From Schmidtea polychroa (Eukaryota), in the NCBI GenBank assembly GCA_044892525.1, contig CM097887.1, positions 93,846,397 to 93,910,396 of the forward strand: DNA of 64,000 nt, read 5' to 3'. Under the pieces are notes generated by a model that was given only the letters and a program-made list of their open reading frames with translations, had not been told where the DNA came from and searched no databases. A program made the translations under genes and the position numbers. Numbering within the stretch: the stretch's first letter is position 1; each line of letters begins with the position of its first letter. Positions 27,143-57,081 of this stretch are shown here, one piece after another.

Positions 27143-27895
27143 CTATTGTTTCTCCCATTCAGCGTCGGCGAATAATTCGTCGAGGTTAAAAAACTCGGAA
27201 GCGTTCTCTTCCCACGTTACGCCAGCGGCTGATATGATTCGTGCTGAGGGTCCCGTTGTTAGGTCGATGGACACGTGAGAGTTACCACCGTTGGTTGAAT
27301 CCTCTATTGATGGGATGTTTGGCTTTGTAGTGGCGCGTTCGCGCTGTCTCTTCTTGCGCTCTGCACGAGAGAGTTGTTTGCGCTTGGGTTTGCTTGAAGA
27401 TGCCACTTGCAGAGGGGTGACTGATACAGATGGACTAGCAGTGGGGGGCTTACTGGTACCCGTGACGACAACATCTGGTCGCTTGGGGGACAATTCGTTT
27501 TCGACGCAGTCTTGGCACGGTCTCTTGAACGGTGGAGATGGATTCGAGGAAAGGTTGTGATGAGGCGGAAAGATGTCATCGGCCTCTCGGATGGGAATCT
27601 GCACTATTTTTCGGGTTGTAGCCGCCTGCACGTAAACCTTATGCAGTGCCTCGGATTGTTCTCTGATTAGACTTCTTTGGGCACGGCTCTCAGATATTAG
27701 CGCGTCCCGGCAATGCTCGCTACGATCGAGCTTCTTTTGGATCTCCTTCATCCGAGCGGGACTAAACCATGTCCCTTCCAGCTCGTCGATTTTTCGTTTA
27801 TATCGACCGATCTGGGCTTGAAGATCTTTAATCACTGCATTTTTATCTGAGCAGGAGAAGCAGGGACGTAGAGCTGATTTGTTGTTTGGTAACAT
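27143..27895 (-). CDS. LTR-encoded 250-aa protein (3' LTR copy), putative nuclear regulator
   Basis: Coiled coil, PCQDC, KPKRKQLSRAERKKRQRER basic patch, acidic aromatic tail; conserved in the sister LTR. Confidence 0.75.
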   Translation of the reverse strand: MLPNNKSALRPCFSCSDKNAVIKDLQAQIGRYKRKIDELEGTWFSPARMKEIQKKLDRSEHCRDALISESRAQRSLIREQSEALHKVYVQAATTRKIVQIPIREADDIFPPHHNLSSNPSPPFKRPCQDCVENELSPKRPDVVVTGTSKPPTASPSVSVTPLQVASSSKPKRKQLSRAERKKRQRERATTKPNIPSIEDSTNGGNSHVSIDLTTGPSARIISAAGVTWEENASEFFNLDELFADAEWEKQ

Positions 27896-30350
27896 AATGG
27901 ATGGCTAAAGAAGAAAACTATGGTGACTATATCTAAAAATTTCGGATCAGATATACGGTTTATCCGCTATTGGATACTTAGTGCTGGAAGAAAACAAGAC
28001 GAGTCGACGAAACAGGATCCCTCCCTTCACCCTTGATTACTAATATTTTACGTATCCTTTACAGAAAATTATTCCCCAACGCCCTGATTGCTTCCCTGAC
28101 GAATGCAAATTATTTGTAAAAATTTTAATTTTCGTCTATCGCGTTCGAGTTGGATTTCTATCTATCGCACATAAAGGCAATTTACGGATTTATTCATGCC
28201 GGAGCGAATAAACCTATTTCATTACAAATACACTATACTACACTTCGTTTAAATTTCGCTGATTATTTGTTGTTATTCTAATGCAAAATAAGGTTTTTGG
28301 ACCAGATGCAACTAGTAAAAACTTGCACCCTTACCTCAAGTAGCGGAATAAGTAATAACTCGTAATTTCGTATAAACTATACGTCACTATTTTATGATTA
28401 CCCCTTATCCATACCATACGGTGATATCGTCGTAGAAATATAGCATCGTAAAAATATTGTAATTACATAATAATTTGTTATCGGATTTAGTTTTCTATTA
28501 CAATACGTCATTTACAGGGAATATGAGAAATTTAACTACAATATTACTAGCTATTTTATAACCCAAAAATTCCTGTAGATGCTTTAGTTAATTTAAATTT
28601 GGCTCAAAGGCTACTACTATTATTTGTAACATCTAATTAGAATTACGATAAACCTCTACAACACTTAGGTGAAACTTCCTATGGTTTAGTTATAAAGTTT
28701 GGTTTGAATTTTCGGTTATTAATTAAAATACCCCTTCAACAATTTCGATTTTTATTTAGAATATTTAATTTAAGCAAAATTATCTTTAATGAGTGCACTT
28801 TAGAGAGTCTCTTATCTTAGTAGTCGGTTACTGGTTATTTTGGCTTATCTTTTTAGTGGTACGAATGACCTTCATCAGTAGTGAAATTTAAGAGTCAGTC
28901 ATCTGGAAGTCACATCTCATGTCAGCATTATCTAATATGACCACTGATTACTACTCACACACTAAGAATCCTAGAGAGGGTGACACATGGCGGCATTCCC
29001 TGCGGTGAGAGGCACTCGGAATGATTCTGCTGTTTCTCATGCATATTTCTGACCGGATGACGCTACTCATAGTTATGTTAGCAGTATGTCTGTATGTATG
29101 GGTGCCTGTTCGATGGAAATTTTATCGGTAACTATCAACCGTACTGAGCGAACTGCAAATGTTACATCGCGTGTCGATTCCCATCTGAGCTTATGATGTT
29201 GGATTTATTTACTACGACTCGTAATTTCCTCAATATTGGATGTTTTTGAACGATGGGAGATCTCTACGAACCAGCCAACTAGACTCTATGAAGCATATTT
29301 CAGTAGTGGATATTTCGACGCAACAGCATGAAAATTATTCAATGGGTATTACCAGATTTTGTTAATATATGTGATTGAATACAGTATTATTGTGGTTTTA
29401 TGTTTTACTTTTCCTTTATTGTAAATTCCTCATCATATGCTAAGATTTGGATGTCGCATCTGAAAGAGATGACCTAAATTAGATTTACTTTTTCAAAAAT
29501 CTACCGAATGCAATTTCAACTTCTCGATATGTTAGAAAAACCAGCGATGGATGTTTAATGGTATTTTCCCCCACATGGTAAGTTCGGATTTATAGACAGA
29601 AGTGGCATGAATGTCTTATAAGACGACTCTGGACAATACAGAGTTAATATGAGAACTCCCTCAGTCGCTGTGAAGCACATATCCTATTTTCGAAAATTTC
29701 ATAAGGTTTCCTTTCGGTCTATATTTCGGTACTCCGACAGATTTTAAGTCCTTCAGCAATTGGACCCGTGAAGAAGCCTTCACATTTCGGCCCAATCTAG
29801 CTGCGTGATTGAAATACTCCATGTCCACCGGCTGAGCTCCCGAAGGCACCTCGCACCATGACATGGAGTATCTCAACGCCACGTTTCTCGTTAATATTAG
29901 AAATCATAAAACTATCACTTCAAAATAAATATCCATAAAAGTTATGTAAGAGTTCACCTGTTACCAATAAATACTTTTAAACATTTAAATTATTTACTTT
30001 ATCAAAATCGTTATTCAGGATCAAATGAAAAGAGAGTCTGGTTAAATTTAAAAGTTTAATTGCTCATTAAATATACATATTTACTATTAACTTCGAAAAA
30101 CAATATCATAAATAAAAATCCCTTACTATGGAATTAGGCTGAATCGGAAAATTAACGTTAGTCGTTCCAAATTAGTCTGATGATGGTTCGTCGAATGTCG
30201 ATTGCTGTGACTGATTTCGAATTGCTGTGAAGTTTTTCGAATTAACTGTTGCTCTACTTGTATTGCTGATCCTTGAAATAAGTCTCCGTGAGTTGTAGAT
30301 GTCTATGAAATGCTCGGGGTTAACAGTAAAAACAGTAAACATTTTTTCTT

Positions 30351-30434
30351 ACCTATGAAATGCTCGGGGTTAACAGTAAATTTAATGTTTTTGGTAGTTG
30401 TATATATATCAAATTCTTATTTGTGCGGACCAAT
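30351..30434 (-). promoter_or_regulatory. LTR promoter module: CCAAT box, TATA-like run, then splice donor AG/GTAAG (copies at 56662-56745 and solo LTR 25324-25458)
   Basis: GCGGACCAATCAGA-TTGAGTACCGC conserved between diverged LTR families; TATATAA in the solo LTR; donor ~50 nt downstream of the TATA in both. Confidence 0.65.
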
Positions 30435-30996
30435 CAGAGTTGAGTACCGCTTATTTCTATTAATTTAATATAATTTTCTTGTTTTTAGGTTGTTTTCTCC
30501 TTATTTTCTTTATTTTTAATATGTTTTTCTATTTATTTCCTTAATTTCCTTATTATTTCTTGAATTCCTCTTTATTTATTTGTCAACTTGTTCTATTTTA
30601 ATCTTTTCTTAATTTTATTTTTTGTTTTAATTCTTATGTCTTACTTATTATTTTCCTTATATCTTATTCTATTTTATTTCTGATTTTATTTGTTTTATTA
30701 TTATTTTTCTTAATGTTCTACTTCCCTACTTTCCTATTTTTCAACGATTAAATTTTCGACTCAGCCCAACAAATCACTCGGGGACCCATCAAAATTGCGT
30801 CCCGCAATTGCATAATTAACTTAATTCATTCATTCAAAAAAAATATAACACGAACACGGAAAATTATACAACAATGATAAAAATTTTATTGTAAGATCAA
30901 GGTCAAAGCAAGACCAAGCAAGTATCACTTAAGGTGATAGTTTGTACATACAATAAAAGTTTCCACATATAACAACACAAATGTTTGAATTAGAGT

Positions 30997-35803: not shown

Positions 35804-37270
35804 CTATATACGTGAGTTTGGAGGGCGCTGAGCGTTCCAGGCCTCCACCCACTGTCCTTGTTTGATATCACTTGGTCGTTTCACTCGATGTTGGAAGTTT
35901 CTGATTCGGGTCATTTCTAGTTCTCCGCGATGTCGTTTATCCTTAATTATTTTTATTGTTCCCCCCGTTATGATTAGGAATGCCCCTGTTATTATTATCC
36001 CACTGATCCACATCATCTGCTTCACGCTTATACTCTCTGGTTTTTCCTTGTTTGTTAATGTTGATATCGCTTCTGTACTTTTCTCGTTTCCTCTTTTGCC
36101 ATTTCCTTTCATCATTTCCCGTATTCTTGCTATTTCCTCGTTCATACCCTCCTTTGCCATCTTTTGTATTTTTTCCATCTCTTCCTCCGAAACATAGTTG
36201 TCCTGAGCTTCCTCACCAGTTTTCTTGTGCTTTCCTCCTTCGTTCTTTTCGTCGTGGTTTTTTCTTTTCTTTCCTCTTTTCCCCGGGTATCGTCGGCATT
36301 CTCTTTTTGATTCATTTCTCCAGATACAAACCGTATATTCCTTCGGAGGCTGCTGCTGCGTCACATATTGATGGCATCTCTCACCCGGTCCTAATCTTGA
36401 AATACAGACTTTGTGCTCTTTTCTTGGTTGGAGCTGCGTTATTACTACTTCGCCACCTTTTCCTAGGTGTACCTCTTTTCCTTTGACGTTCGTTATTCTC
36501 TTCCCGTCTCGATTTCGGTATGCTTCTTGTATTCTTACTTCTGTTATTGGTTCTGTGGCCTCATTTATCAGTACTAGTTTCTGATACGCTCTAGACATGC
36601 ATCTTCCTAGTATGCACCTTTCCTTTAAGTCCCATTCTTCCTTTAAATCCCACTGCTGCTCTTGTGCTTGCTTTTTCTTTTCTTGCTTTAGTTCATCCTC
36701 TTTGCTATCTTGATTCTCCGCTTCTTTGGTTTCTTTTATCGTCCTCGTCCCTCCAGGAGCTGTTACTAACTCTATCATGGTAAGCATAATTATCATTAAT
36801 ATCATATTTGTCTCTATTTCTTTGTTAGTGAAAGGTAGGCATACCCTCTGTTTTCCATTATTCGGTTTTTCCTCCTCTTTGGTCTTAGTTCCCGGGCTGT
36901 TTCCCTCTCTTTTCGTATCCGAATCCTTGTTTTCCGGTTTACCCTCCTCCGGTTCTCTTTCCTCTTTATCCTCCTTTCGGCCTTTTCCGTTATTGTCATC
37001 GTGTTTATCTCCCCCGCTGTCGTTTAAAATGTCGTCCTCGACATTTATATCGTTCAATAATCTGCGATATGCTGTTAGCACTCTGTTTCTTGCTAATTTC
37101 GCTTCGAATTCAAACTCTTTTCTACCCGTTGCAGCATGTCTCTTTCTATTCCATTCTTTAACTAACTCTCTCAATTGCATACGACGATGTTTCCCAATTC
37201 GTTGTTGCTCGTTCTGATTTTGCGTGAATTTTAGGTCTTCTCTATTTAATACTATTAAAATAATTTTAGG
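35804..37270 (-). CDS. Membrane protein (ankyrin end, internal signal, FN3-like domain, TM); probable -1-frame continuation of the polyprotein
   Basis: Frame is open upstream of the ATG at 37180 and overlaps the polyprotein end; VITQLQPRKEHKVCI is FN3-like; two hydrophobic segments. Confidence 0.65.
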   Translation of the reverse strand, partial: PKIILIVLNREDLKFTQNQNEQQRIGKHRRMQLRELVKEWNRKRHAATGRKEFEFEAKLARNRVLTAYRRLLNDINVEDDILNDSGGDKHDDNNGKGRKEDKEEREPEEGKPENKDSDTKREGNSPGTKTKEEEKPNNGKQRVCLPFTNKEIETNMILMIIMLTMIELVTAPGGTRTIKETKEAENQDSKEDELKQEKKKQAQEQQWDLKEEWDLKERCILGRCMSRAYQKLVLINEATEPITEVRIQEAYRNRDGKRITNVKGKEVHLGKGGEVVITQLQPRKEHKVCISRLGPGERCHQYVTQQQPPKEYTVCIWRNESKRECRRYPGKRGKKRKNHDEKNEGGKHKKTGEEAQDNYVSEEEMEKIQKMAKEGMNEEIARIREMMKGNGKRGNEKSTEAISTLTNKEKPESISVKQMMWISGIIITGAFLIITGGTIKIIKDKRHRGELEMTRIRNFQHRVKRPSDIKQGQWVEAWNAQRPPNSRI

Positions 37271-38950
37271 CGTCCCCCCCTTAGTTGGGTATTCTTTACC
37301 ATCGCATTTTCTCCGTTTTCGTAGAATTCGTTTACATTTATCGCATATTTATTATTTTGTGGTACTCTCCAGGTTAATAATAATTTCATTGCTTCTAGAT
37401 TTTTCCGTACCGTATTCCATTGAAACTGAGATGTGTTTTTGCACATATTTTCAACTTCTTCTTTTGTCGCATTTTTGCAAATAAATCTGATCATTTCTAG
37501 GTTTGGCTGTATGGTTGCCCAGTCCAAGGTGGAATTTCCTTCATTGGACCTTTCGTCTAGTTTCGATCCTGATTGATGTAGGATGTGGAGTGTTTTTGGG
37601 TGTATTTTTGTTATAGCTGCATACATCATGGCGGTTTCGCCTTGTTCATTTTTCGTGTTGGTTTCCTCGCCCATATCTCCAAGGATTCTCACGATCGTTA
37701 TTGCTCTATTTTCTTTCGCTGCTAGTATTGCTTGTTGTAGGGGTGTTCGGGAATCCTTCGTTACCATCGTAAATGCTCGAGGCAAGAAGGTTTTGATTTT
37801 CCCGATATCTAAACCCGTGGTTTGATCTCTTGCGTATGTATGTACAGCTTTTATTATTTTTGACAATATTATTTCGTCTGACAACTCTAGCATTTCCTCA
37901 AAGAATACCTCTTTCGCTTTGCGTATTATTGCCTCCTGATCTATACTCATTGATTTGGTTTCGATGACGTTGTTTATGACCGTTTGGTTCGTTGTTGACT
38001 TTGATTCCCTGGATTTCTCATACCTTATTTTCGTTTTCTTTCCGTTTGGATTATTGATTCGTTCCTCTGCTGTAAGTATTTGGATAATATCCAGGTAATT
38101 CTCGCGGATGTTATTCATTGTGTCCATCATATATAACACACTTACCGTTTCCCAATATTTATTTCGTACTTGGTTAGTAAATTGGAATAGTGATTTTTCG
38201 AATGTGTCGATTCGCTTTTTTGTTAACTGTTCGTCTTTGTGATTTGTGAATTTTATCCCTCGTTCTAGTAATTGATTCGGGATTTCGAATAAATGATGTC
38301 CTTTCATAGCTTCTCTCATCAGCGTGTTCTCTCCTCTCGTGAACGCTTCGTTTACGTTGATCATATAATCGTTTCGAATTGGATTTCTCCATGTAATTAA
38401 TATTCCGGTAATTGTCGTCAGTTTTTCTTTGATCGCTGTTAGCAATCCATCATACATGTTTCCGACTTCCCGATTGTCCTCATATGATAGTAGTTCCATC
38501 AATGACGTGAACGCCTCGGTACTTCTCCCTCTGATAGCATGATGTAGAGCGTTTTTCCGCTCGTGGTCTTGTGTAGTTATTTTCGATCCGGTATCGAGTA
38601 ATGCGGTTATAATGTCTTTTGTTTTTCCTCTGTTTGCTGCTATCATTAATGGTGTGTAACCTTGGTTGTTTGTTTGTTCTGTTGATCGCTTGCAGTCGTG
38701 AAATGCTTCTATTGTTTCTAGTATTTGCTCGTTGTTACCTACTTTCATGAGTTTGTGTAATGGTGTGTCTCCGTAATGATCTGTTATTGTAAATAATATT
38801 GGCCATTGGCTTTTGACTACTCGCAATAATGGGTGTGTCCTTTCTCTATTTGCATAGTTCTCGATCATCGTCAATAATCCTCCTAATATTTCGAAATCTA
38901 ATCGATCTTTTGCCCATCCAGGTATTTTAATTTTTACCTCTTTTACAATC
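37255..38950 (-). other. Ankyrin-repeat region C-terminal to integrase
   Basis: GDTPLH, GYTPLMIAANRG, KNALHHA, SRTPLQQA, GETAMMYAA, GNSTLDWA. Confidence 0.88.
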
Positions 38951-41900
38951 TTTTCCGCTTCTGATGGTTGGATACCCAATCGTCCGGTGATCGGTTCTGC
39001 GAGTTGTTGCATCATGTTCATTCGGTAGGTTTGCGAACGTGTGGTTAATGTACGGCCTTCTGGTTGACTAGTGGCTGTTTTTGGAATTGATTTGCATCGT
39101 GCCACGTTTACGTATATTGGTCTGGTAAAGGGGTTATTTACCAATTTCACTCTTACATTAGTTTCGCCTACGAATAAGATCTCATATGGTCCTTTTCCGT
39201 TGCGTTGCAACTTTTTTGTGGTTCCTGGAATTAATTCCGGGGTTTCTATCATTACCCAATCACCTGTTTGGAACGTATGTTGCTTCACGTTTTTCTTTCG
39301 ATCGTGTAAATCTTTATAACTTTCCTGGTAGAACTTGATATTTAATCCCGCAGTTTCCCAAATTTCTTGCATTCTTTCCTTGAATTTCGTAACATAATCA
39401 TCGATCTCCATATACTGCGATATCGGTGGTTGGTATTCCAGGTCCATTGGCATATTACATTCTCTTCCGTACATTAATTTGAATGGGCTCATTTTCGTTG
39501 ATGCGTGAATCGACATTCTGTACGCCATAAGACATAGGTTTATATATTCATCCCAATCTCGTTGGTGACGGTCAACGTAGTTTGATAACATTTGTATAAG
39601 TGTTCCATTAAATCTTTCCGTCATCCCATTGGTTTGAGGGTGGTATGGAGATGTTCTTAGTTTTGCTATTTTGAAGTAATTTGTTACTTCGCTCATTATC
39701 TCACTCATAAAATTAGTTCCCTGATCGGTTAAGATTTGTTTTGGTGTTCCATATCGGCAACATATCTCTTCTACCAAAATTTTTGCGATTGTTTTAGCTT
39801 TTTGGTCTGGCATCGCGAATGCTTCTGGGAATTTCGTAAGAAAGTCTGTGATCACTAGAATGTAAACGTTTCCTTTATCTGACTCTGGTAGTGGACCAAC
39901 TACGTCCATGGATATCATTGTCATTGGTTCTATTGGTACTGGCATTGGTGTTAAAGGTGCTTTCCATTTCGATCCAGTATTCTTCCTGGTTGCACAAGTT
40001 AGACAATTTTTTACCCATTCAGTTACATCTTCAGTTAACGTAGGCCAAAAATATTTCTGTTTCATTCTTGCTAACGTCTTTTTCGATGACATATGTCCTC
40101 CCAATCTCCCATCGTGATATTGCGTTAGTAACTCTTTTCGTCGGTTTTCCGGTATACACATTAATCGTTTTTCCCCATCCATTATCAGCAACCAATCTTT
40201 CTCTATAATATATCGGTGTCGGTGTTTATCCATATGTTCTTTTAATTTTTGGTCTTTCGCATATACCTCTGTCTTTCCGGTTTTTACATAATCGATAATT
40301 TGTTTTAATTCCGCGTCCTCTTGTTGGTCCTTTCGTAATTGACAGAAATCCAAATCTTCCGCTACTATTAAGCATATGCGTTGCATTTCTGAATCCACCA
40401 AATCTGGGAAAATAAATCTTGACATACAATCGGCGTTGGCATTTGCTCTTCCCGCTTTGAATTTTATAAATGGGGAGTATTCTTGCAATTGCATGGCCCA
40501 TCGCATCAGTCTACTGGACGCTTCTTTATGTTGCCCTAACCACACTAATGGTTGATGATCCGTGGTTATGCATATCTCATGTCCCCATAGTAAATATCGG
40601 AAGTGTTTGATAGCTTGTATTATAGCCAATGCTTCTCGTTCTGTTACCGAATAGTTCTTTTCGTGCTTTTTGAATGTTCGACTGTAATACCCGATTACTC
40701 TCTCTTTTCCCTCATCGTCTAATTGTCCCAAAATCGCGCCTGCCGCGTACCCGCTTGCATCCGTTGCCAATAGAAATGGCTTCTTAAAATCTGGGTGTAC
40801 GAGGATAGGTGCTTCGATTAGCTTATCTCTCAGCGTTTCGAACGCCTGTTGTTGTTCTTTTTCCCAAATGAACGAAATATCCTTCTTTACTAATTCCTGG
40901 ATTGGTTTTGCAATTCCTGCATAATTTTTGATAAATTTGCGATAGTATCCGCATAATCCTAGAAATTCCTGAACTTGGGTGACCGTTTTCGGTGCGGGAC
41001 ATGTTTTTATTTTCTCAATGTTCCTTGGATCTGGCTCCTTTCCTTTAGCTGACACTATGTGTCCTAAAAACGTGACTTTTTCCTTTGCCCAATCGCATTT
41101 TGATGGTTTGAGTTTGAGTTTCCACTGTCTTAATCTAATAAATACGTTTCGGATATCTTCCAGATGTTGTTCAAATGTCGCTGAATAGATTAGTAAATCA
41201 TCAATATATACCATACATTGTTTGATTCCATGGGTGACAAAGTTCATACACCGTTGAAATGATGCTGGTGCGTTGGTCAGTCCAAATGGCATTTTCCTGA
41301 ATTGATATAGATCTCGTCCCAACGTGAAAGCTGTTTTCTCTTTGTCCTCATCTTTGACTTTAATCTGCCAGTATCCACTTTTTAGATCTAAAGAAGTAAA
41401 ATATGCTGCCCCTTGCAACATCAATAACATCTCATTGATGTCCGGCAATGGATAGGTATCTCTCTTGGTCACTACGTTTAACTTCCGATAATCGATACAG
41501 AATCGTTGGGTGCCATCTTTCTTTTTTACCATGACCACTGGGAATTGCCAGGGTGAGCAACTTGGTTCGATTACTTTTGCGTCCAGCATCTTTTGTACTT
41601 CTGCTTCGGCTATTTCTTTTTGCATTTCTGCTAGCTTGTATGGTCTTAATGCAATTGGAGTTTCATCTATGAGGGGTATTGCATGTAGGGTAACATCGCA
41701 TGTACCCAAGTCTAAGTCTGAGATGGCGAATATATCTTTATATTCTACCAACAATCGGTGTAATTTTTTCTTTTCATCATTCGTCAACAACATACTATCT
41801 ATTGTCCATAATTCATCATCTTTGATCATCTCGTTGGTCACTTTCGGTAATTCTATGTCCATCATTGGGGTCAATCTTCCCAATTTTTCGTTCTCATAAA

Positions 41901-44900
41901 TGATTTTGTCTTCTTCTTCGAAATTCGTGATGTTGAGCGGTATCACTCCTTCTTGGTTTATTGTTATTATTTCTCTTGCGAGTGGTAATTCTCGTCGCTT
42001 TTCGAATGACTTGCTTGGTTCAAAGATAACTTCTCCTTCCATACCCGTATCCACTTTTATCTGACAAATCATCTGCGATTTTGCTGGTACTATTATTTTT
42101 TCTGGACATCTGATGACTGCATTCACTTTGCATATTCTACCGGTTTTGTCTTTTAAACACATGGTTGTTAAGTCAATTACGACTTCTTTTAACAATTCTG
42201 GCATCAAATCCGTTCCGATTATGCATGGTACGCTAAGTTTTGGTATTACTGCCAAATACGTTTCAATTTCGTTGTCCTGGTATCTCAATGTAGTCCACCA
42301 TCTTCCGACCACGTCCACTGTTTCTTTACTACATGCTATGATGTGAATTGTTGTTGATTCGATATCCTTCCAGTGTTTACTGGGAATTTGATTAATCGCT
42401 ATCGCCGATACATTAGCTCCTGTGTCTATCATAGCATTGGTTTCTTGACCATTGATTTGGATCATGACTGTCACTGCTGGACCTCCAGGTAGACTCATTG
42501 CTGCGATTGTTCTTACGTCATCTGCTTGATCTACACTTTTGGTACGTCGTGTTGGCATATAATGCATACCGGGTTGACTCGGTAATTGCGGATACATATT
42601 TTGGGTCATGGTCAAAGCTGCTTGTGGTCCCACGATATCCGGTGGTATATAGCTTCCATTGGCGATCCAGGTGTTTGTCTTTTCCTTTTCCCAATATGGT
42701 GCCGTTTCCATTGGTTTTTCGTTTGGGTTTCTGTTTGGATAAAGACATTTATCGTTCCCGTTATCATCGTCGTCACTATCGCTGTTAGATGATTGGCTTC
42801 TAAATCGGTCCAAGAATTTTGGCTTATTCTTTTTCAATTGTCGTCTTGTTGCTTCATCGTACATTACTTTCCGGAATCGTCTGCCTACTTCTTCGTCGGT
42901 TCCTTTAATCTTTGTTAATATTTTAATCAATCGCTTTATCCGATGAATGTCTTTTGAGTGACCATGTAATACCATGGTTTTAGCTAAAAATGGTAAGAAG
43001 CCTACTATCATTTTCCAGTTAACTTTCTTTTCCCGCTTGTATATATCGAAACAAGCTAACATTTGTGTTAGTATTACTCTGACTATCTGAATTATGAGTA
43101 TGATCCCTAATATCCCGGCCATCATTTGTCCAAAAACTAAGAATCTTCCCCACATTGCTTTCATCATGTTTGACGTAGCTTGTTGAAAATGGTCTGGCGA
43201 TAATAGCAGCTCGTAATTCGGGCCTGATTGATAGTTTGTGCCCCCAGTTATTGTTACCATATTTGACAAAATGGATTCTCGTCTGGCTGGGAAGAGTACG
43301 TTAAGTCGTGCTGTTTCTAGATCTTCTGGGGAATACATACCACCGTTTGACACGTCTATAGGTTTGAAATCCAGCTCTGTGGCGAGTTCTATTAATCCAA
43401 ATTTCTTGGGTTCCTCGGATATGGTTTTTCCCGGTAACATCATCCATTTCCCATCGGGTCTTTCATACAAAGGTCCGTATGCATTAGAACAGTTAAAGAG
43501 ATTTGGGTAGAAACCCACTGGATTCATAATTCTAGTGACTGGTTGGACGAATCGATTTTGTCCTTTATAACGAATTTCTAATTCATTTGCACATCTCTTT
43601 TCGGGTAGTATGGATTTTTCTGGCATTCGTGCATACGTCTTGGTACACTGGTATGTGTACATCACTTCTCCTACCATTCTACCAAAGTGTCCATCTGGTA
43701 ATGGGAGTGATGGCATCGTGTTATCGGGGTGCGTTATCGCAATAGCTAGCTTTGTTTTCAATATTTCTTTATTCAATGAACAATCGTTTTGTATCAGATC
43801 GTAATATACTTTTTGCAAGGTCGTTTGTCCGCGATGAAATAGAAAATCCATTTTATTATTTGCATATAAGTACAGTTTTACGTCCTCCGTTGCTATCTTT
43901 CCCACTGCTCTATCGATTATTTGTCTCGACATATAGATACCTGCGTAATTGGTTTTATATACTATACTGTCACATTTGGTGGTTTCTTTTTCTTTGATAA
44001 ATCTCATACCTAGATCTGGATCGTCTGTGATTAATGCTGTTGGTGTCTTCTGCGTTGAAAGTCTCTTTTCTCTGGGAGATGGTGGCATTGGTTTTCCATT
44101 TCGCATTCTCACTCTGTCGTTTCCATCCTCGTCGTTCTCGTTCTCATATATTTCTCCTTTTACTTCATTGAACAAAGCACTTTTTAACAGTTGGAGTCGG
44201 CATTTTTGGGTATTAGCTTCATAGATTATAGTTGATACTCCTGTCCTGCATACGTTTTCTGTAGCTCTACACGCTGGGTTGGTCTTCATTTGGTAATTAT
44301 TTGCGTCAAATTGCGCTTCGTATTCTTTTAATTCGACCGTGTAAGACTCGATCACTACAACTCCCGATATTACCTCGCCTCGGATCGTATACGTACCTCC
44401 GTTACATGACCCATCTGATGATTTTACTTTTCCGGATACGTAAACACTTTCGGTTTTAATCATTCCAGTTTGTCCGTGAATTGTCACTCCGTTATGCATT
44501 TTTAGCGCTCCGGTTCTAAATAGCTCTTTACAATCCTCTCGTTGTATTGATACGATTTCTTTATCCAGACCGGGTAGTATAAGAGTCGAATACGAATATT
44601 GTCCACAGTAATATGCGAGTACCTTTTTTGATACTACGCATTCCCTTGCTTGCGTTCTGATGAAATCTGATTCTTGATATACATGGTAAGTAACTTTTGT
44701 TCTCACGATGTCCAATTTGTTGGGTGAGGCTTGTCTGCATTCTTCTATATCTCTCAATGAGTATTTATCTCTCATTATCATATTATCACAATCGTAGATG
44801 GTGAAACCTGTTGCTCCACTTGTGCACAACATCCATATCATCATAGTCATCATTAACGAATTTATTGATGCTTTTCTGCTTGCGGGATCTTTCATCGGTA

Positions 44901-47900
44901 GTTCCCATTCTAGTTCATTTAACAGTTTTTTCAATCTAACTTGCATCGACCTTTCTTGCTCATTTTTCCGTGGCGCTTGTATCAGTCTTTTCCATCCTCC
45001 TGCACGAATAATATGTGGTTCAATAGTATTCTCTATGATTGAAACGGTCATTTCCACATGATTTGCGAACTGTTTATTTGGTATTTTCCTCGCAGCTAGT
45101 CCCATCAAATTATACATCAAATACGTGATTACCACTAGGTGATGTTCGTCATCATTTGCATTTGTCGTGAGCTGCTCAATCACTCTCTTTGTTTCGTCCC
45201 AATCCGTTTTGGTGGTTTTCGTTTTCTCTTTGATTAACTTTGGGATTATCCCCGAAATGGTGTGCCATAATTGTCTAGCTTCCGTACTGGCTACTTTCCG
45301 TTGCCACAAACGTCTAAGTTGTGGGTTTGTTATTATTAACATATCTTTTAACAATTCTCGTATCCATTTTTCTCCTCTTTCGATCGTTGGTTGGGCTTCC
45401 TTTAGATCCCATACTATTTTATCCAATTTTTCTAATCGAACTTGCCCTTGTTCTTGCTTTAATTGTTCTTTGGTTTTGAACTCAGACTTTTCTCCTTGTT
45501 TCTTAGGTCTTCCTTTTGCCCGTTTTTCCATCATCGTTCCGGCTTCTCTGGTATTTTCGTAATTCGGATTTTTTTCGTTATCCGTTCTGGGTAATGAGCT
45601 ATCGTTATTTCTTAGCCACTCATTCCATTCGTCTATTATTTTGTCGGTTTGACTTTCTGGTGTGACTTTCGTTGGTTCTCTTTGCTTCTGGAATTGTTCA
45701 TCCGTTTCGGTTTCCGTAGTATTGTCGATGATTTCTTTGATGTTCAGTTTCGTTGGTTGTTGATAACTCGTTGATGGCTGGTTATTAGTCCACATTTCGG
45801 CTCCTGTCGGCCATCTCACTAATAGCGGTGATCTTTCTCCTGGTTCATCGTCACTATCTTCCAGGATTATCTCTTCGACTTCTTCAGTTTCATTAGATTT
45901 ACTTGGTGCTTTGTTCGGACTTGGAGTACTCAAACTGCCTTTTGTTGGTTTAATAATTTTACTTTTCCTTTTTAACGGTTTCCCCAACGTTTCTGCCATT
46001 GTTAACACATTTGTCTCTTCCAATCTCATGGGTGTTATCCCGACGTCTGCATTATCGTCTAGTGATTTTCCGAACAGTTGCAGATGGAATGGAGTTTCAT
46101 ATGCTAATTTCTTTTTTAATTCTCTAATTTTTGTTGTTGGATGCACCTCTAGTTCCTCGATGCTCTTGTCCGGATACTTGATTCGGATGTGATACCTCTC
46201 CTGGGTGTCTTGTGCCCATTCCTGATTTCTCCATTTTCGAATAATTTGTTCTAGCTGTTCTGGATACCATTCATTATATTGCCGGTATTCCTCTATTGCC
46301 TTTGCCATTCCTCTCAGATTGTGGATATTCTCTGATGTTTTTAAGATGATATTAGCCAACGCTACTACCTGGCGTTTTTGATTTTTCGCTCCCATTGCTA
46401 AAATATCGCCTAATTGTTTATATCTTTCTTTCTCTTCTCGTTCTCTTGCTTCCGTCGCTTCCTCGCCGTCCATATCAGCATATTCACGCTCCTTTTTCCT
46501 CATTGCATGAATATGTCTCGCTTCATTTTCGCTTTCTGATGTGACATCCGTCTCGCTTTCGTCATCTGATGTCTGTTCCCTTGCTTCCTCTTCATATTCT
46601 GGAGGTTCCTCTTCTTCTTCCTCCGATTCACTTTCTGTCTCACCAATGTCTGTTTCTACGAAGATTCCTTTCCGGATTTCCCATTCCTTATTTTCTGCAT
46701 TCCACACTCTTTCCCATGGGGTTCGTCTGCAGGATCTGGTATTTAATTTCGTGATTTTTCCTTGTAGCTCTTTTTCTTTTAACCATTGTTGGTGGATTTC
46801 AATTATTTCTGTAGATTTCTGATATAACGTTTTCATCCGGTCTCGTATTTCTTTTTGATAGGTTACATCTCTTGTTCGAAATTCATCCATTGGTACTATC
46901 CTGATTATCTGGTGATTGTCCCACATACCCATTTCGCTTAACGAGGTGTCGTCCTCCGCTCGTAATATTATCTTATCGTACATCATGACTACATCATCCA
47001 CCATACCATCACTACTTTCGCTACGTACCTTTTCCGTTATCTCTAGGTTTATTTTTGATACCAAGTCATCCACTGTACTCTGATTGCTCATTTTTATTCG
47101 TCGTTTTTCTTCGTTCGGTAACCATATGGTTATTTCCAACCTCTGTGGCTGGGTTTCTTTTAACCTTCCATATTTGTGGATCAAATTTATGGTTCTCCAA
47201 TCACTCATTCGGAGCATTTCTGTATCTCGCAACCGGCTCATTAGTTCGTACATGGCTGGGGCTCGTCTGGTGATGAGTAAATCCCAGTTGTCTTCTACTT
47301 GTTCTTGAATTTGTTTGATCAGCTTATCCAGGTTTCGTCTCAGAGTACATTGTTTTATTTGTTCTAATTTCAATTTGATATTAAAATCATATTCTGCCTT
47401 GGCATCTTTAGCCCAGTCGTAAAGGTTGGCTGGTTGTTTTTCTTTATGCAACTTCAGTATTTGCGTTTCTCCTGGCCATATTAGTGCATCTACTAAGTGC
47501 ATATCTGGTTTGATCTGTTCTCCTTGGTATTGATACAGATATTCTTTCTTTCTCGAACTTCCCAAATGTTCTCGTATCCAATCGAAAAGTTCGTCGGTGA
47601 CTGTATTTTTTATCCACATTCTTTCAAGTCCTCTACTCGTTCCAATTTTTATTACATACCGCGTGGTATCGGCCTGCTTCATTTTTTCCATATAGTTTTT
47701 TATAATTGGTTTTTCCTCGTTTGGTATTAGATCTTTCTCGTTTCTTTCCAATTTCATCACTTTTTGCACGAATCGCCTGAATGGTATTACGTCGATGAAC
47801 TCTTGGTTCCTCACTACTACTGGGAGTATTTCGGCTACCTGTTTTATCGCTTCCTCCCTTGCTTTTCTCAACTTTATTTCGATATCTTCGTCTTCACTTT

Positions 47901-49656
47901 CACTGGTTATCTCGTTTCCGCTTTCTTCCTCTTTGATTTCCCCTTTTGAGGGTTCGCTTATTTCATTCGGCTGTAGTATTTCTCCACCCAAACTACTTAC
48001 ATAATCTTCTTCTTCGTCTGACGATGCTACATCTTTTGTCCTTTTCATCATATTGATTTGCAAGTTTCTCATCCTTGGTACTCTCTTTAGTTTCTTTCTT
48101 TCGAATATTGTTGTTTCTTCTGATTCTGATTCTTGTAGCATTTGGTGATTTAGTTGACTGGTTTGTTCCCCGCTCTTGTTATTTTCATCTTCTGTCTCGG
48201 TTTTCGCTTTATTATGTTCTTTTTCGATTTTATCCTTTATCTTTTTCCAGAATATTTTCTGAATTCTCTGGTTTCCTTTTGAAATCGTGGTTGAATTCTC
48301 TGTTTTCATTTCCGTTGTTATTTCCTTTACTTTTTCTGGTTCAGTCATGGGTACTACCCTTGGGCTTTTCCCGTAATTGTAGCAATACTGGCTCTTCATG
48401 TCTTTTACTAACTTCATCATATTTATTCGCAATGGTTGTTCTTGTCGTTGTTGGTTGCGTTCTTGTTTTATCCTCTCTTCCTCGGCCTGTAGCCTTTGCC
48501 ATTCTTGTACATGTTGATGCACTTCATAATTGTTGAGATTTTCGGTACTCCTCATCATACGTATATTCTGGGTTTGTTGTGGTGCTGATTCTTGTCTTGG
48601 TCTCATCATTTGTTGCATCATCTGTTTCATCTGCGAAATTTCCTGCATAACGTTCATTTGTTTTCCTTCGTTAGGGTTACTTTGTCGTTGCGGATTCGCT
48701 ATATAATTATTATTTCGCTGTGGTGGTCGTTGTTGTTGGCCCCTTTCTCGGCAATCTCTGGAGATGTGACCTGGCTGACCACAGTTAAAACAACCTCGCA
48801 ATTGGCATACATTTTCGGTATGTCCACGCCGTCCGCAACGATTACAATTTGAATTTCTATAACAATCTCTGTCCCAGTGTCCTGGTTTACCGCATGTTCG
48901 GCACTGCTTGTTATCGTTCATATTTCGCCGATTATTGAAATTGTTCTCATTATTCGGGTTGTTACGATTACCATTATTCCCGTTTGATCGTCCTTGTGGT
49001 GGTTTGAAAATTTGGTGCGCTCCTGGTATAAATTGATTCATTTTCGGTTCTTGATTGTTGTTATCTCCGTTATCCGCTTTCGCTATTGCTGTCGCTATCC
49101 TTCCCTCCTCTTGCATAATATTCATTTGAGCTGGAAGGTGGAGCTCGCATCTTGTAGCCCAATCTATGGCTTCCTCTAATGTTTTGCACATTTGACAACC
49201 TACTGAGGCTCTTACTTCTTCTCGGCGTAATCCCTCTATGAAATAACCGATCAGATTTTCTTCGGGTAATTTTCCATTCATTGCTTTCTTCGCTAATCTC
49301 CGCAATTCACTGGCATATAATGTTATCGATTCGTTTGCTCTTTGTTTCCTATTTGCTAGTTCGCCCAACGCCTGGTTGATTGGCTTACTGGCTCCGAAGG
49401 TTTTCTTCAGGAATGTTTTAATATCTTCCCACTTTTCTAATTTCGTGTCTCTCTCTTTAGCTTCTAAATATACCTCTAATGCACTATCGCACAAAAACAA
49501 CGGCATCCTTTTACTAATTGCTTCGGGTGTCCATCCACACACAGTGATATAAACTTCAAAATTAGTTATGAACGTTGCTAGCTTGTTTGCATTTCCGTTG
49601 AACGGTTCTCCTCTGAACTTCTCTTTATACTCGTCGGTTTTTACGACATTCGTCAT
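37255..49656 (-). CDS. 4133-aa Gag-accessory-Env-Pol-ankyrin polyprotein
   Basis: Single stop-free ORF containing all canonical retrotransposon domains plus inserted domains. Confidence 0.96.
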   Translation of the reverse strand: MTNVVKTDEYKEKFRGEPFNGNANKLATFITNFEVYITVCGWTPEAISKRMPLFLCDSALEVYLEAKERDTKLEKWEDIKTFLKKTFGASKPINQALGELANRKQRANESITLYASELRRLAKKAMNGKLPEENLIGYFIEGLRREEVRASVGCQMCKTLEEAIDWATRCELHLPAQMNIMQEEGRIATAIAKADNGDNNNQEPKMNQFIPGAHQIFKPPQGRSNGNNGNRNNPNNENNFNNRRNMNDNKQCRTCGKPGHWDRDCYRNSNCNRCGRRGHTENVCQLRGCFNCGQPGHISRDCRERGQQQRPPQRNNNYIANPQRQSNPNEGKQMNVMQEISQMKQMMQQMMRPRQESAPQQTQNIRMMRSTENLNNYEVHQHVQEWQRLQAEEERIKQERNQQRQEQPLRINMMKLVKDMKSQYCYNYGKSPRVVPMTEPEKVKEITTEMKTENSTTISKGNQRIQKIFWKKIKDKIEKEHNKAKTETEDENNKSGEQTSQLNHQMLQESESEETTIFERKKLKRVPRMRNLQINMMKRTKDVASSDEEEDYVSSLGGEILQPNEISEPSKGEIKEEESGNEITSESEDEDIEIKLRKAREEAIKQVAEILPVVVRNQEFIDVIPFRRFVQKVMKLERNEKDLIPNEEKPIIKNYMEKMKQADTTRYVIKIGTSRGLERMWIKNTVTDELFDWIREHLGSSRKKEYLYQYQGEQIKPDMHLVDALIWPGETQILKLHKEKQPANLYDWAKDAKAEYDFNIKLKLEQIKQCTLRRNLDKLIKQIQEQVEDNWDLLITRRAPAMYELMSRLRDTEMLRMSDWRTINLIHKYGRLKETQPQRLEITIWLPNEEKRRIKMSNQSTVDDLVSKINLEITEKVRSESSDGMVDDVVMMYDKIILRAEDDTSLSEMGMWDNHQIIRIVPMDEFRTRDVTYQKEIRDRMKTLYQKSTEIIEIHQQWLKEKELQGKITKLNTRSCRRTPWERVWNAENKEWEIRKGIFVETDIGETESESEEEEEEPPEYEEEAREQTSDDESETDVTSESENEARHIHAMRKKEREYADMDGEEATEAREREEKERYKQLGDILAMGAKNQKRQVVALANIILKTSENIHNLRGMAKAIEEYRQYNEWYPEQLEQIIRKWRNQEWAQDTQERYHIRIKYPDKSIEELEVHPTTKIRELKKKLAYETPFHLQLFGKSLDDNADVGITPMRLEETNVLTMAETLGKPLKRKSKIIKPTKGSLSTPSPNKAPSKSNETEEVEEIILEDSDDEPGERSPLLVRWPTGAEMWTNNQPSTSYQQPTKLNIKEIIDNTTETETDEQFQKQREPTKVTPESQTDKIIDEWNEWLRNNDSSLPRTDNEKNPNYENTREAGTMMEKRAKGRPKKQGEKSEFKTKEQLKQEQGQVRLEKLDKIVWDLKEAQPTIERGEKWIRELLKDMLIITNPQLRRLWQRKVASTEARQLWHTISGIIPKLIKEKTKTTKTDWDETKRVIEQLTTNANDDEHHLVVITYLMYNLMGLAARKIPNKQFANHVEMTVSIIENTIEPHIIRAGGWKRLIQAPRKNEQERSMQVRLKKLLNELEWELPMKDPASRKASINSLMMTMMIWMLCTSGATGFTIYDCDNMIMRDKYSLRDIEECRQASPNKLDIVRTKVTYHVYQESDFIRTQARECVVSKKVLAYYCGQYSYSTLILPGLDKEIVSIQREDCKELFRTGALKMHNGVTIHGQTGMIKTESVYVSGKVKSSDGSCNGGTYTIRGEVISGVVVIESYTVELKEYEAQFDANNYQMKTNPACRATENVCRTGVSTIIYEANTQKCRLQLLKSALFNEVKGEIYENENDEDGNDRVRMRNGKPMPPSPREKRLSTQKTPTALITDDPDLGMRFIKEKETTKCDSIVYKTNYAGIYMSRQIIDRAVGKIATEDVKLYLYANNKMDFLFHRGQTTLQKVYYDLIQNDCSLNKEILKTKLAIAITHPDNTMPSLPLPDGHFGRMVGEVMYTYQCTKTYARMPEKSILPEKRCANELEIRYKGQNRFVQPVTRIMNPVGFYPNLFNCSNAYGPLYERPDGKWMMLPGKTISEEPKKFGLIELATELDFKPIDVSNGGMYSPEDLETARLNVLFPARRESILSNMVTITGGTNYQSGPNYELLLSPDHFQQATSNMMKAMWGRFLVFGQMMAGILGIILIIQIVRVILTQMLACFDIYKREKKVNWKMIVGFLPFLAKTMVLHGHSKDIHRIKRLIKILTKIKGTDEEVGRRFRKVMYDEATRRQLKKNKPKFLDRFRSQSSNSDSDDDDNGNDKCLYPNRNPNEKPMETAPYWEKEKTNTWIANGSYIPPDIVGPQAALTMTQNMYPQLPSQPGMHYMPTRRTKSVDQADDVRTIAAMSLPGGPAVTVMIQINGQETNAMIDTGANVSAIAINQIPSKHWKDIESTTIHIIACSKETVDVVGRWWTTLRYQDNEIETYLAVIPKLSVPCIIGTDLMPELLKEVVIDLTTMCLKDKTGRICKVNAVIRCPEKIIVPAKSQMICQIKVDTGMEGEVIFEPSKSFEKRRELPLAREIITINQEGVIPLNITNFEEEDKIIYENEKLGRLTPMMDIELPKVTNEMIKDDELWTIDSMLLTNDEKKKLHRLLVEYKDIFAISDLDLGTCDVTLHAIPLIDETPIALRPYKLAEMQKEIAEAEVQKMLDAKVIEPSCSPWQFPVVMVKKKDGTQRFCIDYRKLNVVTKRDTYPLPDINEMLLMLQGAAYFTSLDLKSGYWQIKVKDEDKEKTAFTLGRDLYQFRKMPFGLTNAPASFQRCMNFVTHGIKQCMVYIDDLLIYSATFEQHLEDIRNVFIRLRQWKLKLKPSKCDWAKEKVTFLGHIVSAKGKEPDPRNIEKIKTCPAPKTVTQVQEFLGLCGYYRKFIKNYAGIAKPIQELVKKDISFIWEKEQQQAFETLRDKLIEAPILVHPDFKKPFLLATDASGYAAGAILGQLDDEGKERVIGYYSRTFKKHEKNYSVTEREALAIIQAIKHFRYLLWGHEICITTDHQPLVWLGQHKEASSRLMRWAMQLQEYSPFIKFKAGRANANADCMSRFIFPDLVDSEMQRICLIVAEDLDFCQLRKDQQEDAELKQIIDYVKTGKTEVYAKDQKLKEHMDKHRHRYIIEKDWLLIMDGEKRLMCIPENRRKELLTQYHDGRLGGHMSSKKTLARMKQKYFWPTLTEDVTEWVKNCLTCATRKNTGSKWKAPLTPMPVPIEPMTMISMDVVGPLPESDKGNVYILVITDFLTKFPEAFAMPDQKAKTIAKILVEEICCRYGTPKQILTDQGTNFMSEIMSEVTNYFKIAKLRTSPYHPQTNGMTERFNGTLIQMLSNYVDRHQRDWDEYINLCLMAYRMSIHASTKMSPFKLMYGRECNMPMDLEYQPPISQYMEIDDYVTKFKERMQEIWETAGLNIKFYQESYKDLHDRKKNVKQHTFQTGDWVMIETPELIPGTTKKLQRNGKGPYEILFVGETNVRVKLVNNPFTRPIYVNVARCKSIPKTATSQPEGRTLTTRSQTYRMNMMQQLAEPITGRLGIQPSEAEKIVKEVKIKIPGWAKDRLDFEILGGLLTMIENYANRERTHPLLRVVKSQWPILFTITDHYGDTPLHKLMKVGNNEQILETIEAFHDCKRSTEQTNNQGYTPLMIAANRGKTKDIITALLDTGSKITTQDHERKNALHHAIRGRSTEAFTSLMELLSYEDNREVGNMYDGLLTAIKEKLTTITGILITWRNPIRNDYMINVNEAFTRGENTLMREAMKGHHLFEIPNQLLERGIKFTNHKDEQLTKKRIDTFEKSLFQFTNQVRNKYWETVSVLYMMDTMNNIRENYLDIIQILTAEERINNPNGKKTKIRYEKSRESKSTTNQTVINNVIETKSMSIDQEAIIRKAKEVFFEEMLELSDEIILSKIIKAVHTYARDQTTGLDIGKIKTFLPRAFTMVTKDSRTPLQQAILAAKENRAITIVRILGDMGEETNTKNEQGETAMMYAAITKIHPKTLHILHQSGSKLDERSNEGNSTLDWATIQPNLEMIRFICKNATKEEVENMCKNTSQFQWNTVRKNLEAMKLLLTWRVPQNNKYAINVNEFYENGENAMVKNTQLRGGRLKLF
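39040..40370 (-). other. Integrase (HHCC, DDE, GPY/F)
   Basis: YHDGRLGGH...CLTC; SMDVVGP; LTDQGTNF; TERFNG; GPYEI. Confidence 0.95.
40400..41720 (-). other. Reverse transcriptase and RNase H
   Basis: LDLKSGYWQ, YIDDLLIYS, LATDASG, ELEA-like EREALA, TDHQPL, ADCMSR. Confidence 0.96.
42130..42480 (-). other. Retropepsin aspartic protease (followed by a dUTPase-like spacer to ~41875)
   Basis: AMIDTGANVSAI and IIGTDLM. Confidence 0.93.
42960..44853 (-). other. Envelope-like glycoprotein, chuvirus/class III fusion type, with internal signal peptide and TM
   Basis: Signal MMTMMIWMLCTSGATG, then FTIYDC, YYCGQYSYS, REDCKELFRTG, DGSCNGGTY; furin site REKR at 44062-44073; WGRFLVFGQMMAGILGIILII TM. 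Confidence 0.82.
44975..45440 (-). other. Bcl-2-like domain
   Basis: ENTIEPHIIRAGGW matches BH2 (Bcl-xL NDHLEPWIQENGGW); helix spacing from KRVIEQL to GGW is within one residue of Bcl-xL; BH1 NWGR not conserved. Confidence 0.7.
45998..47660 (-). other. Three ubiquitin-like domains (~47445-47660, ~46890-47143, ~45998-46198)
   Basis: LEVHPTTKIRELKKKL...LQLFGKSLDD; STVDDLVSKI...DDTSLSEMGM; YLYQYQGEQIKPD. Confidence 0.65.
48750..49656 (-). other. Gag: capsid plus three CCHC zinc knuckles
   Basis: Retrotransposon capsid-like N-terminus; CRTCGKPGHWDRDC, CNRCGRRGHTENVC, CFNCGQPGHISRDC. Confidence 0.95.
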
Positions 49657-52894: not shown

Positions 52895-52912
52895 ATCCCG
52901 GCTGAGCCCCCA
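52895..52912 (-). promoter_or_regulatory. Primer binding site, tRNA-Pro type
   Basis: Sense TGGGGGCTCAGCCGGGAT vs the MLV tRNA-Pro PBS TGGGGGCTCGTCCGGGAT (16/18); 7 nt from the 5' LTR. Confidence 0.85.
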
Positions 52913-55900: not shown

Positions 55901-57081
55901 TTATAGACAGAAGTGGCATGAATGTCTTATAAGACGACTCTGGACAATACAGAGTTAATATGAGAACTCCCTCAGTCGCTGTGAAGCACATATCCTATTT
56001 TCGAAAATTTCATAAGGTTTCCTTTCGGTCTATATTTCGGTACTCCGACAGATTTTAAGTCCTTCAGCAATTGGACCCGTGAAGAAGCCTTCACATTTCG
56101 GCCCAATCTAGCTGCGTGATTGAAATACTCCATGTCCACCGGCTGAGCTCCCGAAGGCACCTCGCACCATGACATGGAGTATCTCAACGCCACGTTTCTC
56201 GTTAATATTAGAAATCATAAAACTATCACTTCAAAATAAATATCCATAAAAGTTATGTAAGAGTTCACCTGTTACCAATAAATACTTTTAAACATTTAAA
56301 TTATTTACTTTATCAAAATCGTTATTCAGGATCAAATGAAAAGAGAGTCTGGTTAAATTTAAAAGTTTAATTGCTCATTAAATATACATATTTACTATTA
56401 ACTTCGAAAAACAATATCATAAATAAAAATCCCTTACTATGGAATTAGGCTGAATCGGAAAATTAACGTTAGTCGTTCCAAATTAGTCTGATGATGGTTC
56501 GTCGAATGTCGATTGCTGTGACTGATTTCGAATTGCTGTGAAGTTTTTCGAATTAACTGTTGCTCTACTTGTATTGCTGATCCTTGAAATAAGTCTCCGT
56601 GAGTTGTAGATGTCTATGAAATGCTCGGGGTTAACAGTAAAAACAGTAAACATTTTTTCTTACCTATGAAATGCTCGGGGTTAACAGTAAATTTAATGTT
56701 TTTGGTAGTTGTATATATATCAAATTCTTATTTGTGCGGACCAATCAGAGTTGAGTACCGCTTATTTCTATTAATTTAATATAATTTTCTTGTTTTTAGG
56801 TTGTTTTCTCCTTATTTTCTTTATTTTTAATATGTTTTTCTATTTATTTCCTTAATTTCCTTATTATTTCTTGAATTCCTCTTTATTTATTTGTCAACTT
56901 GTTCTATTTTAATCTTTTCTTAATTTTATTTTTTGTTTTAATTCTTATGTCTTACTTATTATTTTCCTTATATCTTATTCTATTTTATTTCTGATTTTAT
57001 TTGTTTTATTATTATTTTTCTTAATGTTCTACTTCCCTACTTTCCTATTTTTCAACGATTAAATTTTCGACTCAGCCCAAC

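Follow-up and report, generated by a model that had tools for sequence, protein, structure and literature searches.

The window, by which we mean the whole 64,000-nucleotide stretch of Schmidtea polychroa DNA analyzed here, holds a full LTR retroelement of 30.5 kb that occupies 26609-57082 on the minus strand, is flanked by a 4-bp target duplication and sits in a TAA microsatellite (26570-26608 and 57083 onward). Its 3′ LTR (26609..30771, minus strand; 4163 bp) and 5′ LTR (52920..57082, minus strand) have the same sequence, with zero mismatches between the two 4,163-bp repeats over the stretch compared, and each wholly contains the 250-aa gene that is the subject of this analysis (27143..27895 in the 3′ LTR and an identical copy at 53454..54206 in the 5′ LTR, both on the minus strand). 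The orientation of the element is fixed by a primer-binding site (52895..52912, minus strand), presumably for tRNA-Pro, which adjoins the 5′ LTR just internal to this right-hand repeat. A purine-rich tract is absent ahead of the 3′ LTR (30772-30800), and the LTR of a distant lineage, family E, is preceded by a similar non-purine motif; plus-strand priming of the element looks atypical from these motifs.

The interior is dominated by a single 4133-aa polyprotein frame of the order gag-env-pol-ankyrin (37255..49656, minus strand), in which gag is followed by a weak Bcl-2-like match, a viral fusion glycoprotein, protease, RT, RNase H and integrase domains and ankyrin repeats. TRAF/MATH and RING ORFs adjoin this frame, and the element carries at least five further accessory ORFs besides the LTR gene. 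The layout is that of the giant gypsy-like Burro/GYPSM1 LTR elements of planarians as given in the excerpted text of PMC6431247: a length of ~30 kb with multi-kb LTRs, a single gag-env-PR-RT-RH-IN polyprotein with env in frame between gag and pol and with ankyrin repeats, and MATH/TRAF, RING and Bcl-2-like cargo. We classify the element, by layout, as Burro-type Ty3/gypsy, as marked by its polyprotein. In the same excerpts (PMC6431247), the domains of the polyprotein and the accessory ORFs are listed, but a gene within the LTR does not appear. Burro elements as such have been described before, and SMEDWI-2 is reported to silence them (PMC8532177).

Next to the full element lies a solo LTR of another family, B (21735..25789, minus strand), with a 4-bp target duplication of its own and a relative of the LTR gene wholly within it. 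Between the two, on the plus strand, is a RING-type cysteine-rich frame (26090-26403), a close relative of which flanks one element of family D (see below). Further out in the window are a Polinton-like cassette (17135-18398), with a 273-aa ORF beside an adenovirus-type protease (Pfam Peptidase_C5), and a segment (14351-15241) that we take, from its translation, to be an exon of a CBP/p300-like host gene.

A gene under purifying selection in the LTR

As originally predicted, both LTR families in the window keep an ORF of ~240-250 aa: 250 aa in the LTRs of the full element (family A), and a 64%-identical relative in the solo LTR (ORF 22301-23077). Translation of the solo-LTR copy most likely begins with the ATG at 23014, behind the predicted acceptor; the protein is then 237 aa long (22301..23014, minus strand), lacks the first CxxC motif through an in-frame deletion and leaves 21 leading codons in the predicted intron end. 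Relatives that are 21-94% identical occupy the same LTR position in four Burro lineages (A, B, C and E), with family C proteins at 35-37% and the most distant lineage, E, at 21-26%. Searches of the animal's own genome (781 Mb, four main contigs) with the proteins of these families returned at least 150 matches each for A, B and E and at least 149 for C; internal stops among the matches listed number 2 for A, 17 for B and 14 for C, in match sets that are biased toward intact copies. A less biased sample, the first 30 of 704 primer-site matches in the genome, comprises three copies of family A, four of B, seven of the distant C and 16 of the non-coding D, and the frame is fully open in 10 of its 14 coding-type (A/B/C) copies. 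Family E was reached by following BIR domains: four of its six LTR stretches give profile matches (domain E 2.6e-8 to 4.3e-5), and a fifth has a near-identical ORF that the profile filter missed.

The LTR gene is a real gene under purifying selection. With 5 of the 24 distinct ORFs removed beforehand as truncated, read-through or frameshifted, the unsaturated pairs, 8 of the 16 compared, yield dN/dS values of 0.087-0.145 (one bootstrap interval, 0.089-0.212) and of 0.04-0.06 over residues 10-104; at 0.09-0.15 overall, the ratio is clearly removed from the value near 1 that the original prediction had named as the mark of an unselected frame. Between A and B, four-fold sites are 72-74% different and synonymous sites are saturated, yet pN is only ~0.20, which puts the conservation of the protein well beyond chance. 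Two further proposals were dropped. Synonymous sites have not diverged beyond chance, given that four-fold sites at 72-80% represent ordinary saturation; and host domestication of solo-LTR copies is unsupported, with pN/pS, in a set chosen for open frames, at 0.31-0.46 in young copies versus 0.17-0.33 in more distant pairs. We consider it highly improbable that the frame is open by chance or is retained solely for an overlapping cis signal. Such a frame would agree with the mobile family D elements that are devoid of it and with the want of a relative in any protein collection searched, but it is refuted by dN/dS, by amino acids that are kept although synonymous sites are saturated, and by the recurrence of the gene in four lineages, always at one and the same place in the LTR, even at the low identity seen in E. 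The accompanying claim that the flanking LTR DNA has diverged applies to the intron, which stands at 28-57% per 100 nt outside its structured element, but not to three conserved non-coding islands, namely the promoter region (72-79%), the structured element (89%) and a U5 element (80%).

Family D consists of pol-less derivatives of ~15-17 kb, whose LTRs of 1.5-1.65 kb are without both the acceptor and the ORF. Four D elements followed over 20 kb have no RT, integrase or LTR-gene ORF matches, with a piece of gag in two of the four, and three of them display LTR pairs that are 99.87-99.94% identical together with target duplications. Since these recently mobile elements are devoid of the ORF, it is no cis requirement; the LTR gene is dispensable in cis.

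The predicted transcription unit

Each coding LTR displays the parts of a predicted transcription unit, which in the 3′ LTR of the full element are all on the minus strand. The CCAAT and TATA boxes of a predicted promoter (30401..30435) precede the ATG of their LTR by 2.5 kb, with an inferred start site near 30380. They are followed by a predicted exon 1 (30353..30380) that is an exact repeat of the last 28 nt of the micro-intron, a predicted 50-nt micro-intron (30303..30352), a predicted ATG-free exon 2 (30127..30302) and a predicted 2.2-kb intron (27905..30126), whose acceptor is 9 nt ahead of the ATG. An AATAAA that is the predicted poly(A) signal (27014..27019) stands ~125 nt past the stop. 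The CCAAT and TATA boxes, a donor ~55 nt past TATA, a micro-intron of 45-51 nt, the ATG-free exon 2 and a second donor are found in 11/11 full coding LTRs examined, and AATAAA is found 125-140 nt past the stop in the window's A and B copies, with no canonical form in C. ATGs are absent from exon 2 in all 11 coding LTRs, where 1.6-3.2 are expected in each (the copies are not independent), and occur in exon 1 of one of them, two or three bases from the predicted start; the non-coding D LTRs have ATGs upstream of the donor in five of five cases. A YAG is present 0-10 nt upstream of the ATG in all 24 distinct ORFs, and a YAG with at least 10/14 pyrimidines in 21 of them versus 19 of 492 background ATGs. 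The acceptor-to-ATG offset varies (0, 1, 5, 8, 9 and 10 nt), and translation in families A, B and C therefore starts at the ORF's own ATG; an in-frame fusion to an upstream exon was rejected for these families because the offsets are not multiples of three.

Exon 1 of family E has an ATG in phase with both of the downstream acceptors in four of the five copies that could be read, even with a length difference of 9 nt. In the remaining readable copy it is out of phase with a stop, and a sixth copy carries an insertion. Behind an acceptor of its own, the family E LTR features a second gene of 121-152 aa with an AT-hook-like end (Pfam E 0.16-0.17, below the cut-off), past which AATAAA is seen in one copy. 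We predict that this gene shares the exon-1 start codon with the coiled-coil gene. A remnant of it in A, B, C or D LTRs was sought and rejected (best tblastn E 0.12 or worse).

The conserved sequence makes it very probable that the promoter, the two leader exons, the intron, the acceptor and the poly(A) signal co-reside in one LTR, so that a single LTR, solo LTRs included, is predicted to be the whole gene; the earlier suggestion that a solo LTR could express the ORF is thereby upheld as a prediction. Among four read runs guessed to be RNA, one covers parts of the ORF, none covers 27940-29479 and none has a joint at the predicted splice sites, which counts neither for nor against the predicted splicing. 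We infer an R region of ~3.4 kb, and predict that the LTR gene sits in R, not in U3. MMTV sag, HIV nef, foamy virus tas/bel and HTLV tax are accessory genes in or near the LTRs of complex retroviruses, of which sag and nef are located in U3 or overlap it, their expression coming from the 3′ end of longer RNAs; the gene described here is instead downstream of the LTR's own predicted start and has its poly(A) signal in the same LTR. The original analogy to sag and nef hence captures an accessory gene housed in an LTR but is inexact as to its place.

Genome RNA probably starts at the same LTR promoter and, if so, has to retain the 2.2-kb intron and escape polyadenylation at the signal in the 5′ LTR. 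No promoter other than this one is seen in the D elements, whose movement likewise requires transcription. A genome pattern search for LTR copies without the large intron gave one match, which by its letters is not an LTR-gene ORF; the absence of intron-lost copies fits the packaging of intron-keeping RNA and proves nothing.

In 10 of 11 LTRs, the last 25-28 nt of the micro-intron duplicate predicted exon 1 exactly, and this repeat begins 28-31 nt past TATA (28-32 nt when further copies are counted, with micro-introns of 45-52 nt), although the units of different copies average 62% identity. Twenty further copies divide into eight with an exact repeat, two with an imperfect one, four with a single unit and six that are not assessable. 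We posit that a spliced 5′ R landing on an unspliced 3′ R at minus-strand transfer would generate the exon-1 repeat, which would then mark the start site. Ordinary tandem-repeat slippage or homogenization could keep the exon-1 units alike, but it leaves the fixed start of the repeat unexplained. Close by, the end of predicted exon 2 (30136-30147) has ~10 nt complementary to the first bases of the LTR (30756-30771) in families A and B, and a long-range pairing of the two in genome RNA is possible.

Two of the conserved islands are candidate structured RNA elements. Element 1, inside the predicted intron (29755..29885, minus strand), folds with a z of −6.85 in A and −4.54 in B, and 6 of its 49 pairs show change on both sides in 6 sequences, more than in 499 of 500 shuffles for a structure derived from the same sequences. 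Its motifs are found in four of nine D stretches, a D element whose two LTRs are almost identical is without it, and no A/B form of it turned up in C. Element 2, in the predicted U5 (26710..26880, minus strand), has three stems, with 20 of 42 pairs changed on both sides in 7 sequences, and opens with a donor-like site in families A-D, not E. Rfam gave no match over 21700-31000 at E up to 1, so the elements are not known ribozymes at that sensitivity. In foamy virus, 5′ LTR polyadenylation is controlled by U1 at an LTR-internal donor, with no dedicated protein (PMC3694450). The elements described here resemble it in having an LTR-internal donor and a need to silence the 5′ poly(A) site; however, the foamy-virus donor is upstream of the poly(A) signal and involves no LTR gene, whereas the donor-like site of element 2 is downstream of it.

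Anatomy and affinities of the LTR protein

Residues 12-98 of the LTR protein (27602..27862, minus strand) comprise a CxxC motif (C12/C15), a helix (13-40), a turn with invariant T42-W43-F44 and P46, and a second helix (46-98). They are followed on the same strand by a second CxxC (C127/C130; 27506..27517), a basic segment with an NLS-like start and a predicted helix at 177-189 (residues 169-188; 27332..27391) and an acidic aromatic tail (residues 228-250; 27146..27214). AlphaFold2 recovers the helices at 13-40 and 46-98, the short helix at 177-189 and a low-confidence C-terminal helix, with a mean pLDDT of 61-62 and a pTM of 0.34 for the whole model and pLDDT of ~80-96 per 10-residue block over residues 21-90; the remainder of the protein is modeled at low confidence and is likely disordered. 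Across 20 proteins of the four families, the invariant columns include D17, K33, T42, W43, F44, P46, K50, E69, R71 and K171, and the common core consists of the coiled coil, the W/F turn and the basic helix. The family E proteins, of 146-152 aa, have neither CxxC nor acidic tail and display the basic helix ~20 residues past the coiled coil. The conserved coiled coil and NLS-like patch of the original prediction are thus borne out, the latter with a counterpart in all four families. Its shared CxxC is not: C127/C130, common to both window copies, is confined to A and B and absent in C and E, and it is C12/C15 that is more widely kept (A/B/C), despite its loss from the window's solo LTR through a 27-nt in-frame deletion not seen in that LTR's closest relatives. 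The predicted tail, in turn, is full in A/B and reduced to a short motif in C, but its absence in E places it outside the conserved core. We rejected the notion that the first CxxC is merely a translated pyrimidine tract, as its codons carry synonymous changes in A, B and C while the motif persists. A bZIP or bHLH basic region was likewise rejected, the invariant spacings of these not being kept, and no leucine-rich export-signal pattern common to all families was found.

A two-copy model of residues 5-115 takes the form of a parallel coiled coil whose chains are in register and whose interface contains C12 and C15, and scores 0.58 versus 0.01 for the best control, with runs that agree in at least 69% of contacts and pLDDT of at least 80. 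In microbes, 21 of 30 solved pairs but none of 23 single chains attain the dimer mark used; the corresponding figures for eukaryotes are 17 of 29 and 0 of 30, and eukaryotic proteins without older relatives seldom pass it (1/7). The model was made without an alignment of the protein's own family and, unlike the calibration, contained zinc. It supports a parallel homodimeric coiled coil, and the protein as a whole has what is supported as a nuclear-regulator anatomy.

Outside its own genome, we found no relative of the LTR protein by sequence, profile, language-model features or fold. A search of 5.8 billion proteins (with a single protein and with two alignments, one of them on shorter proteins only) gave none, the word-index protein search covering proteins up to ~445 aa, and a two-sequence alignment run against 1.84 billion representatives gave one repetitive 557-aa match, judged to be a chance match. 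Pfam returned weak coiled-coil matches and nothing else, PDB sequences and viral contigs returned no match, and Foldseek against PDB and viral models returned none at E 0.001 or better. The best Atlas scores were 0.84 and 0.87, and delta antigen (0.77) and bZIP_2 (0.83) are leads only. The LTR gene is not described in the literature searched and is not mentioned in the available portions of PMC10558129, PMC11410931 and PMC7264820; the original Burro paper (Grohme 2018), its supplement and a review figure may draw the ORF. We conclude that the LTR gene is a real gene that encodes a new protein family in an unusual LTR design, and its function is a matter of prediction.

Candidate roles of the LTR protein

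The role that we tentatively prefer is that of a dimeric nucleic-acid-binding protein that acts in trans at the RNA level, in the manner of Rev or CERV, and enables the production or export of full-length genome RNA. The LTR gene would be expressed through a short spliced mRNA confined to the LTR, and genome RNA from the same promoter would keep the 2.2-kb intron and pass the 5′ poly(A) signal. The parallel coiled-coil dimer would present two basic helices, and their target would be the element's own RNA, for example, candidate structured element 1, which lies in the intron and would be lost from the gene's own mRNA. The predicted layout pits a short, fully spliced RNA against a long, intron-keeping one, which is the problem that Rev, Rex and CERV solve. 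The predicted dimer and basic helices in every coding family fit an RNA-binding switch, to which an activator-like tail would be an add-on in some lineages.

Lentiviral Rev and deltaretroviral Rex combine oligomerizing helices with a basic helix. The LTR protein would resemble them in its predicted dimer and basic helix, and in the candidate structured element inside the removed intron, but differs in being without a family-wide export-signal pattern and in being encoded inside the LTR. Rev is also the product of a fully spliced mRNA, in the excerpts of PMC10309623 and PMC7264820; here the splicing is predicted. CERV of the C. elegans gypsy element Cer1, which groups with a flatworm env-carrying element (PMC13524379, in part), is produced from a spliced mRNA and is needed for genome RNA export, and its clade must export intron-containing genome RNA (both from the available sections of PMC10309623). 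By comparison of descriptions, CERV is likewise gypsy-encoded, with a leucine-zipper/helical domain, an NLS and a cysteine cluster, but it has 517 aa, exons shared with gag, and M and G domains (same sections of PMC10309623), whereas the LTR proteins have 146-254 aa, are encoded wholly in the LTR and are without M/G domains. Neither Pfam nor the PDB, searched by sequence and by fold, nor the viral folds gave a match that would indicate homology to Rev, Rex or CERV. The additional ORFs of plant LTR retrotransposons are similarly conserved, with function not assigned and some of their products nuclear (PMC7264820, in the excerpted text).

Several points speak against an RNA-level switch: the want of a family-wide export-signal pattern; the absence of the CERV M and G domains from the models of the LTR protein; and the fact that some D copies do without element 1, along with its A/B form not being found in C. 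Element 1 could also be a cis transport or packaging signal that needs no element-encoded protein, and any of the five or more other accessory ORFs could do the job. Finally, the acidic aromatic tail, the strongest A/B-specific feature, would fit an activation domain.

This last point leads to a close rival, a transcriptional activator of the LTR promoter, which we consider possible, if somewhat doubtful. In it, the dimer would bring its basic helices to the LTR and the acidic tail would recruit co-activators, with a Tas/Tax-like protein if recruitment is via DNA and a Tat-like one if it is via nascent RNA. The dimer, basic helix and acidic tail together amount to transcription-factor anatomy; the tail has a low dN/dS (0.04-0.17 in most pairs), with a short acidic-hydrophobic motif kept in C; and families A and B share a conserved, AT-rich U3 (82.6% over 298 nt). 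Under the Kotha-Staller rule (charge −13 to −8, W+F+L at least 6; PMC10550315, in part), applied to the C-terminal 39-aa window, 13 of 16 A/B proteins qualify but 0 of 3 C proteins do, and the precision of the rule is 0.19-0.73 even on human transcription factors, according to the same partial source. Family E dispenses with both tail and CxxC, and its separate second gene bears the AT-hook-like motif, so DNA binding may belong there; nor did the profile, sequence and fold searches find a DNA-binding fold or family match or homology to a known transactivator. The Tax/Tas-like regulator first proposed accordingly survives as a selected gene with nuclear-regulator anatomy, but is weakened as an activator by the tail's failure in C and absence in E.

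We regard as unlikely a host-directed effector or chromatin tether that would blunt PIWI/H3K9me3 silencing, alter host signaling or help the integration complex to reach chromatin. The element does bear other host-modulating cargo (TRAF/MATH, RING and the weak Bcl-2 match), and the predicted short LTR-only mRNA would come first and from many copies; however, the core is strongly constrained by purifying selection and does not change fast, no motif or fold ties the protein to a silencing pathway, and what we take to be a SUMO-interaction-like stretch is seen only in the A/B proteins. Mixed roles of the LTR protein are possible.

Returning to the RNA-level switch, a fuller scenario can be drawn, which we offer as speculative in its entirety. 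Burro LTRs, solo LTRs included, would be complete early-gene cassettes, with spliced and polyadenylated units in a ~3.4-kb R that encode a new family of dimeric regulators. In one lineage, an AT-hook-like protein and a coiled-coil/basic protein would be paired on alternative last exons as an independently arisen counterpart of tat/rev or tax/rex. The protein would switch output from short spliced RNA to genome RNA and serve the pol-less derivatives in trans, and reverse transcription would rewrite the micro-intron end as a copy of exon 1.

Complex retroviruses are marked by regulatory proteins translated from spliced RNA, and among gypsy elements CERV is the one proven example in the literature searched. 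The very long predicted R and the exon-1 repeat bear on how reverse transcription handles LTR introns. If the prediction is true, every solo LTR would be a potential expression cassette in a genome with at least 149-150 scored copies per family, and the LTR gene would be a direct handle on how giant elements under PIWI silencing become active in an animal used as a stem-cell model.
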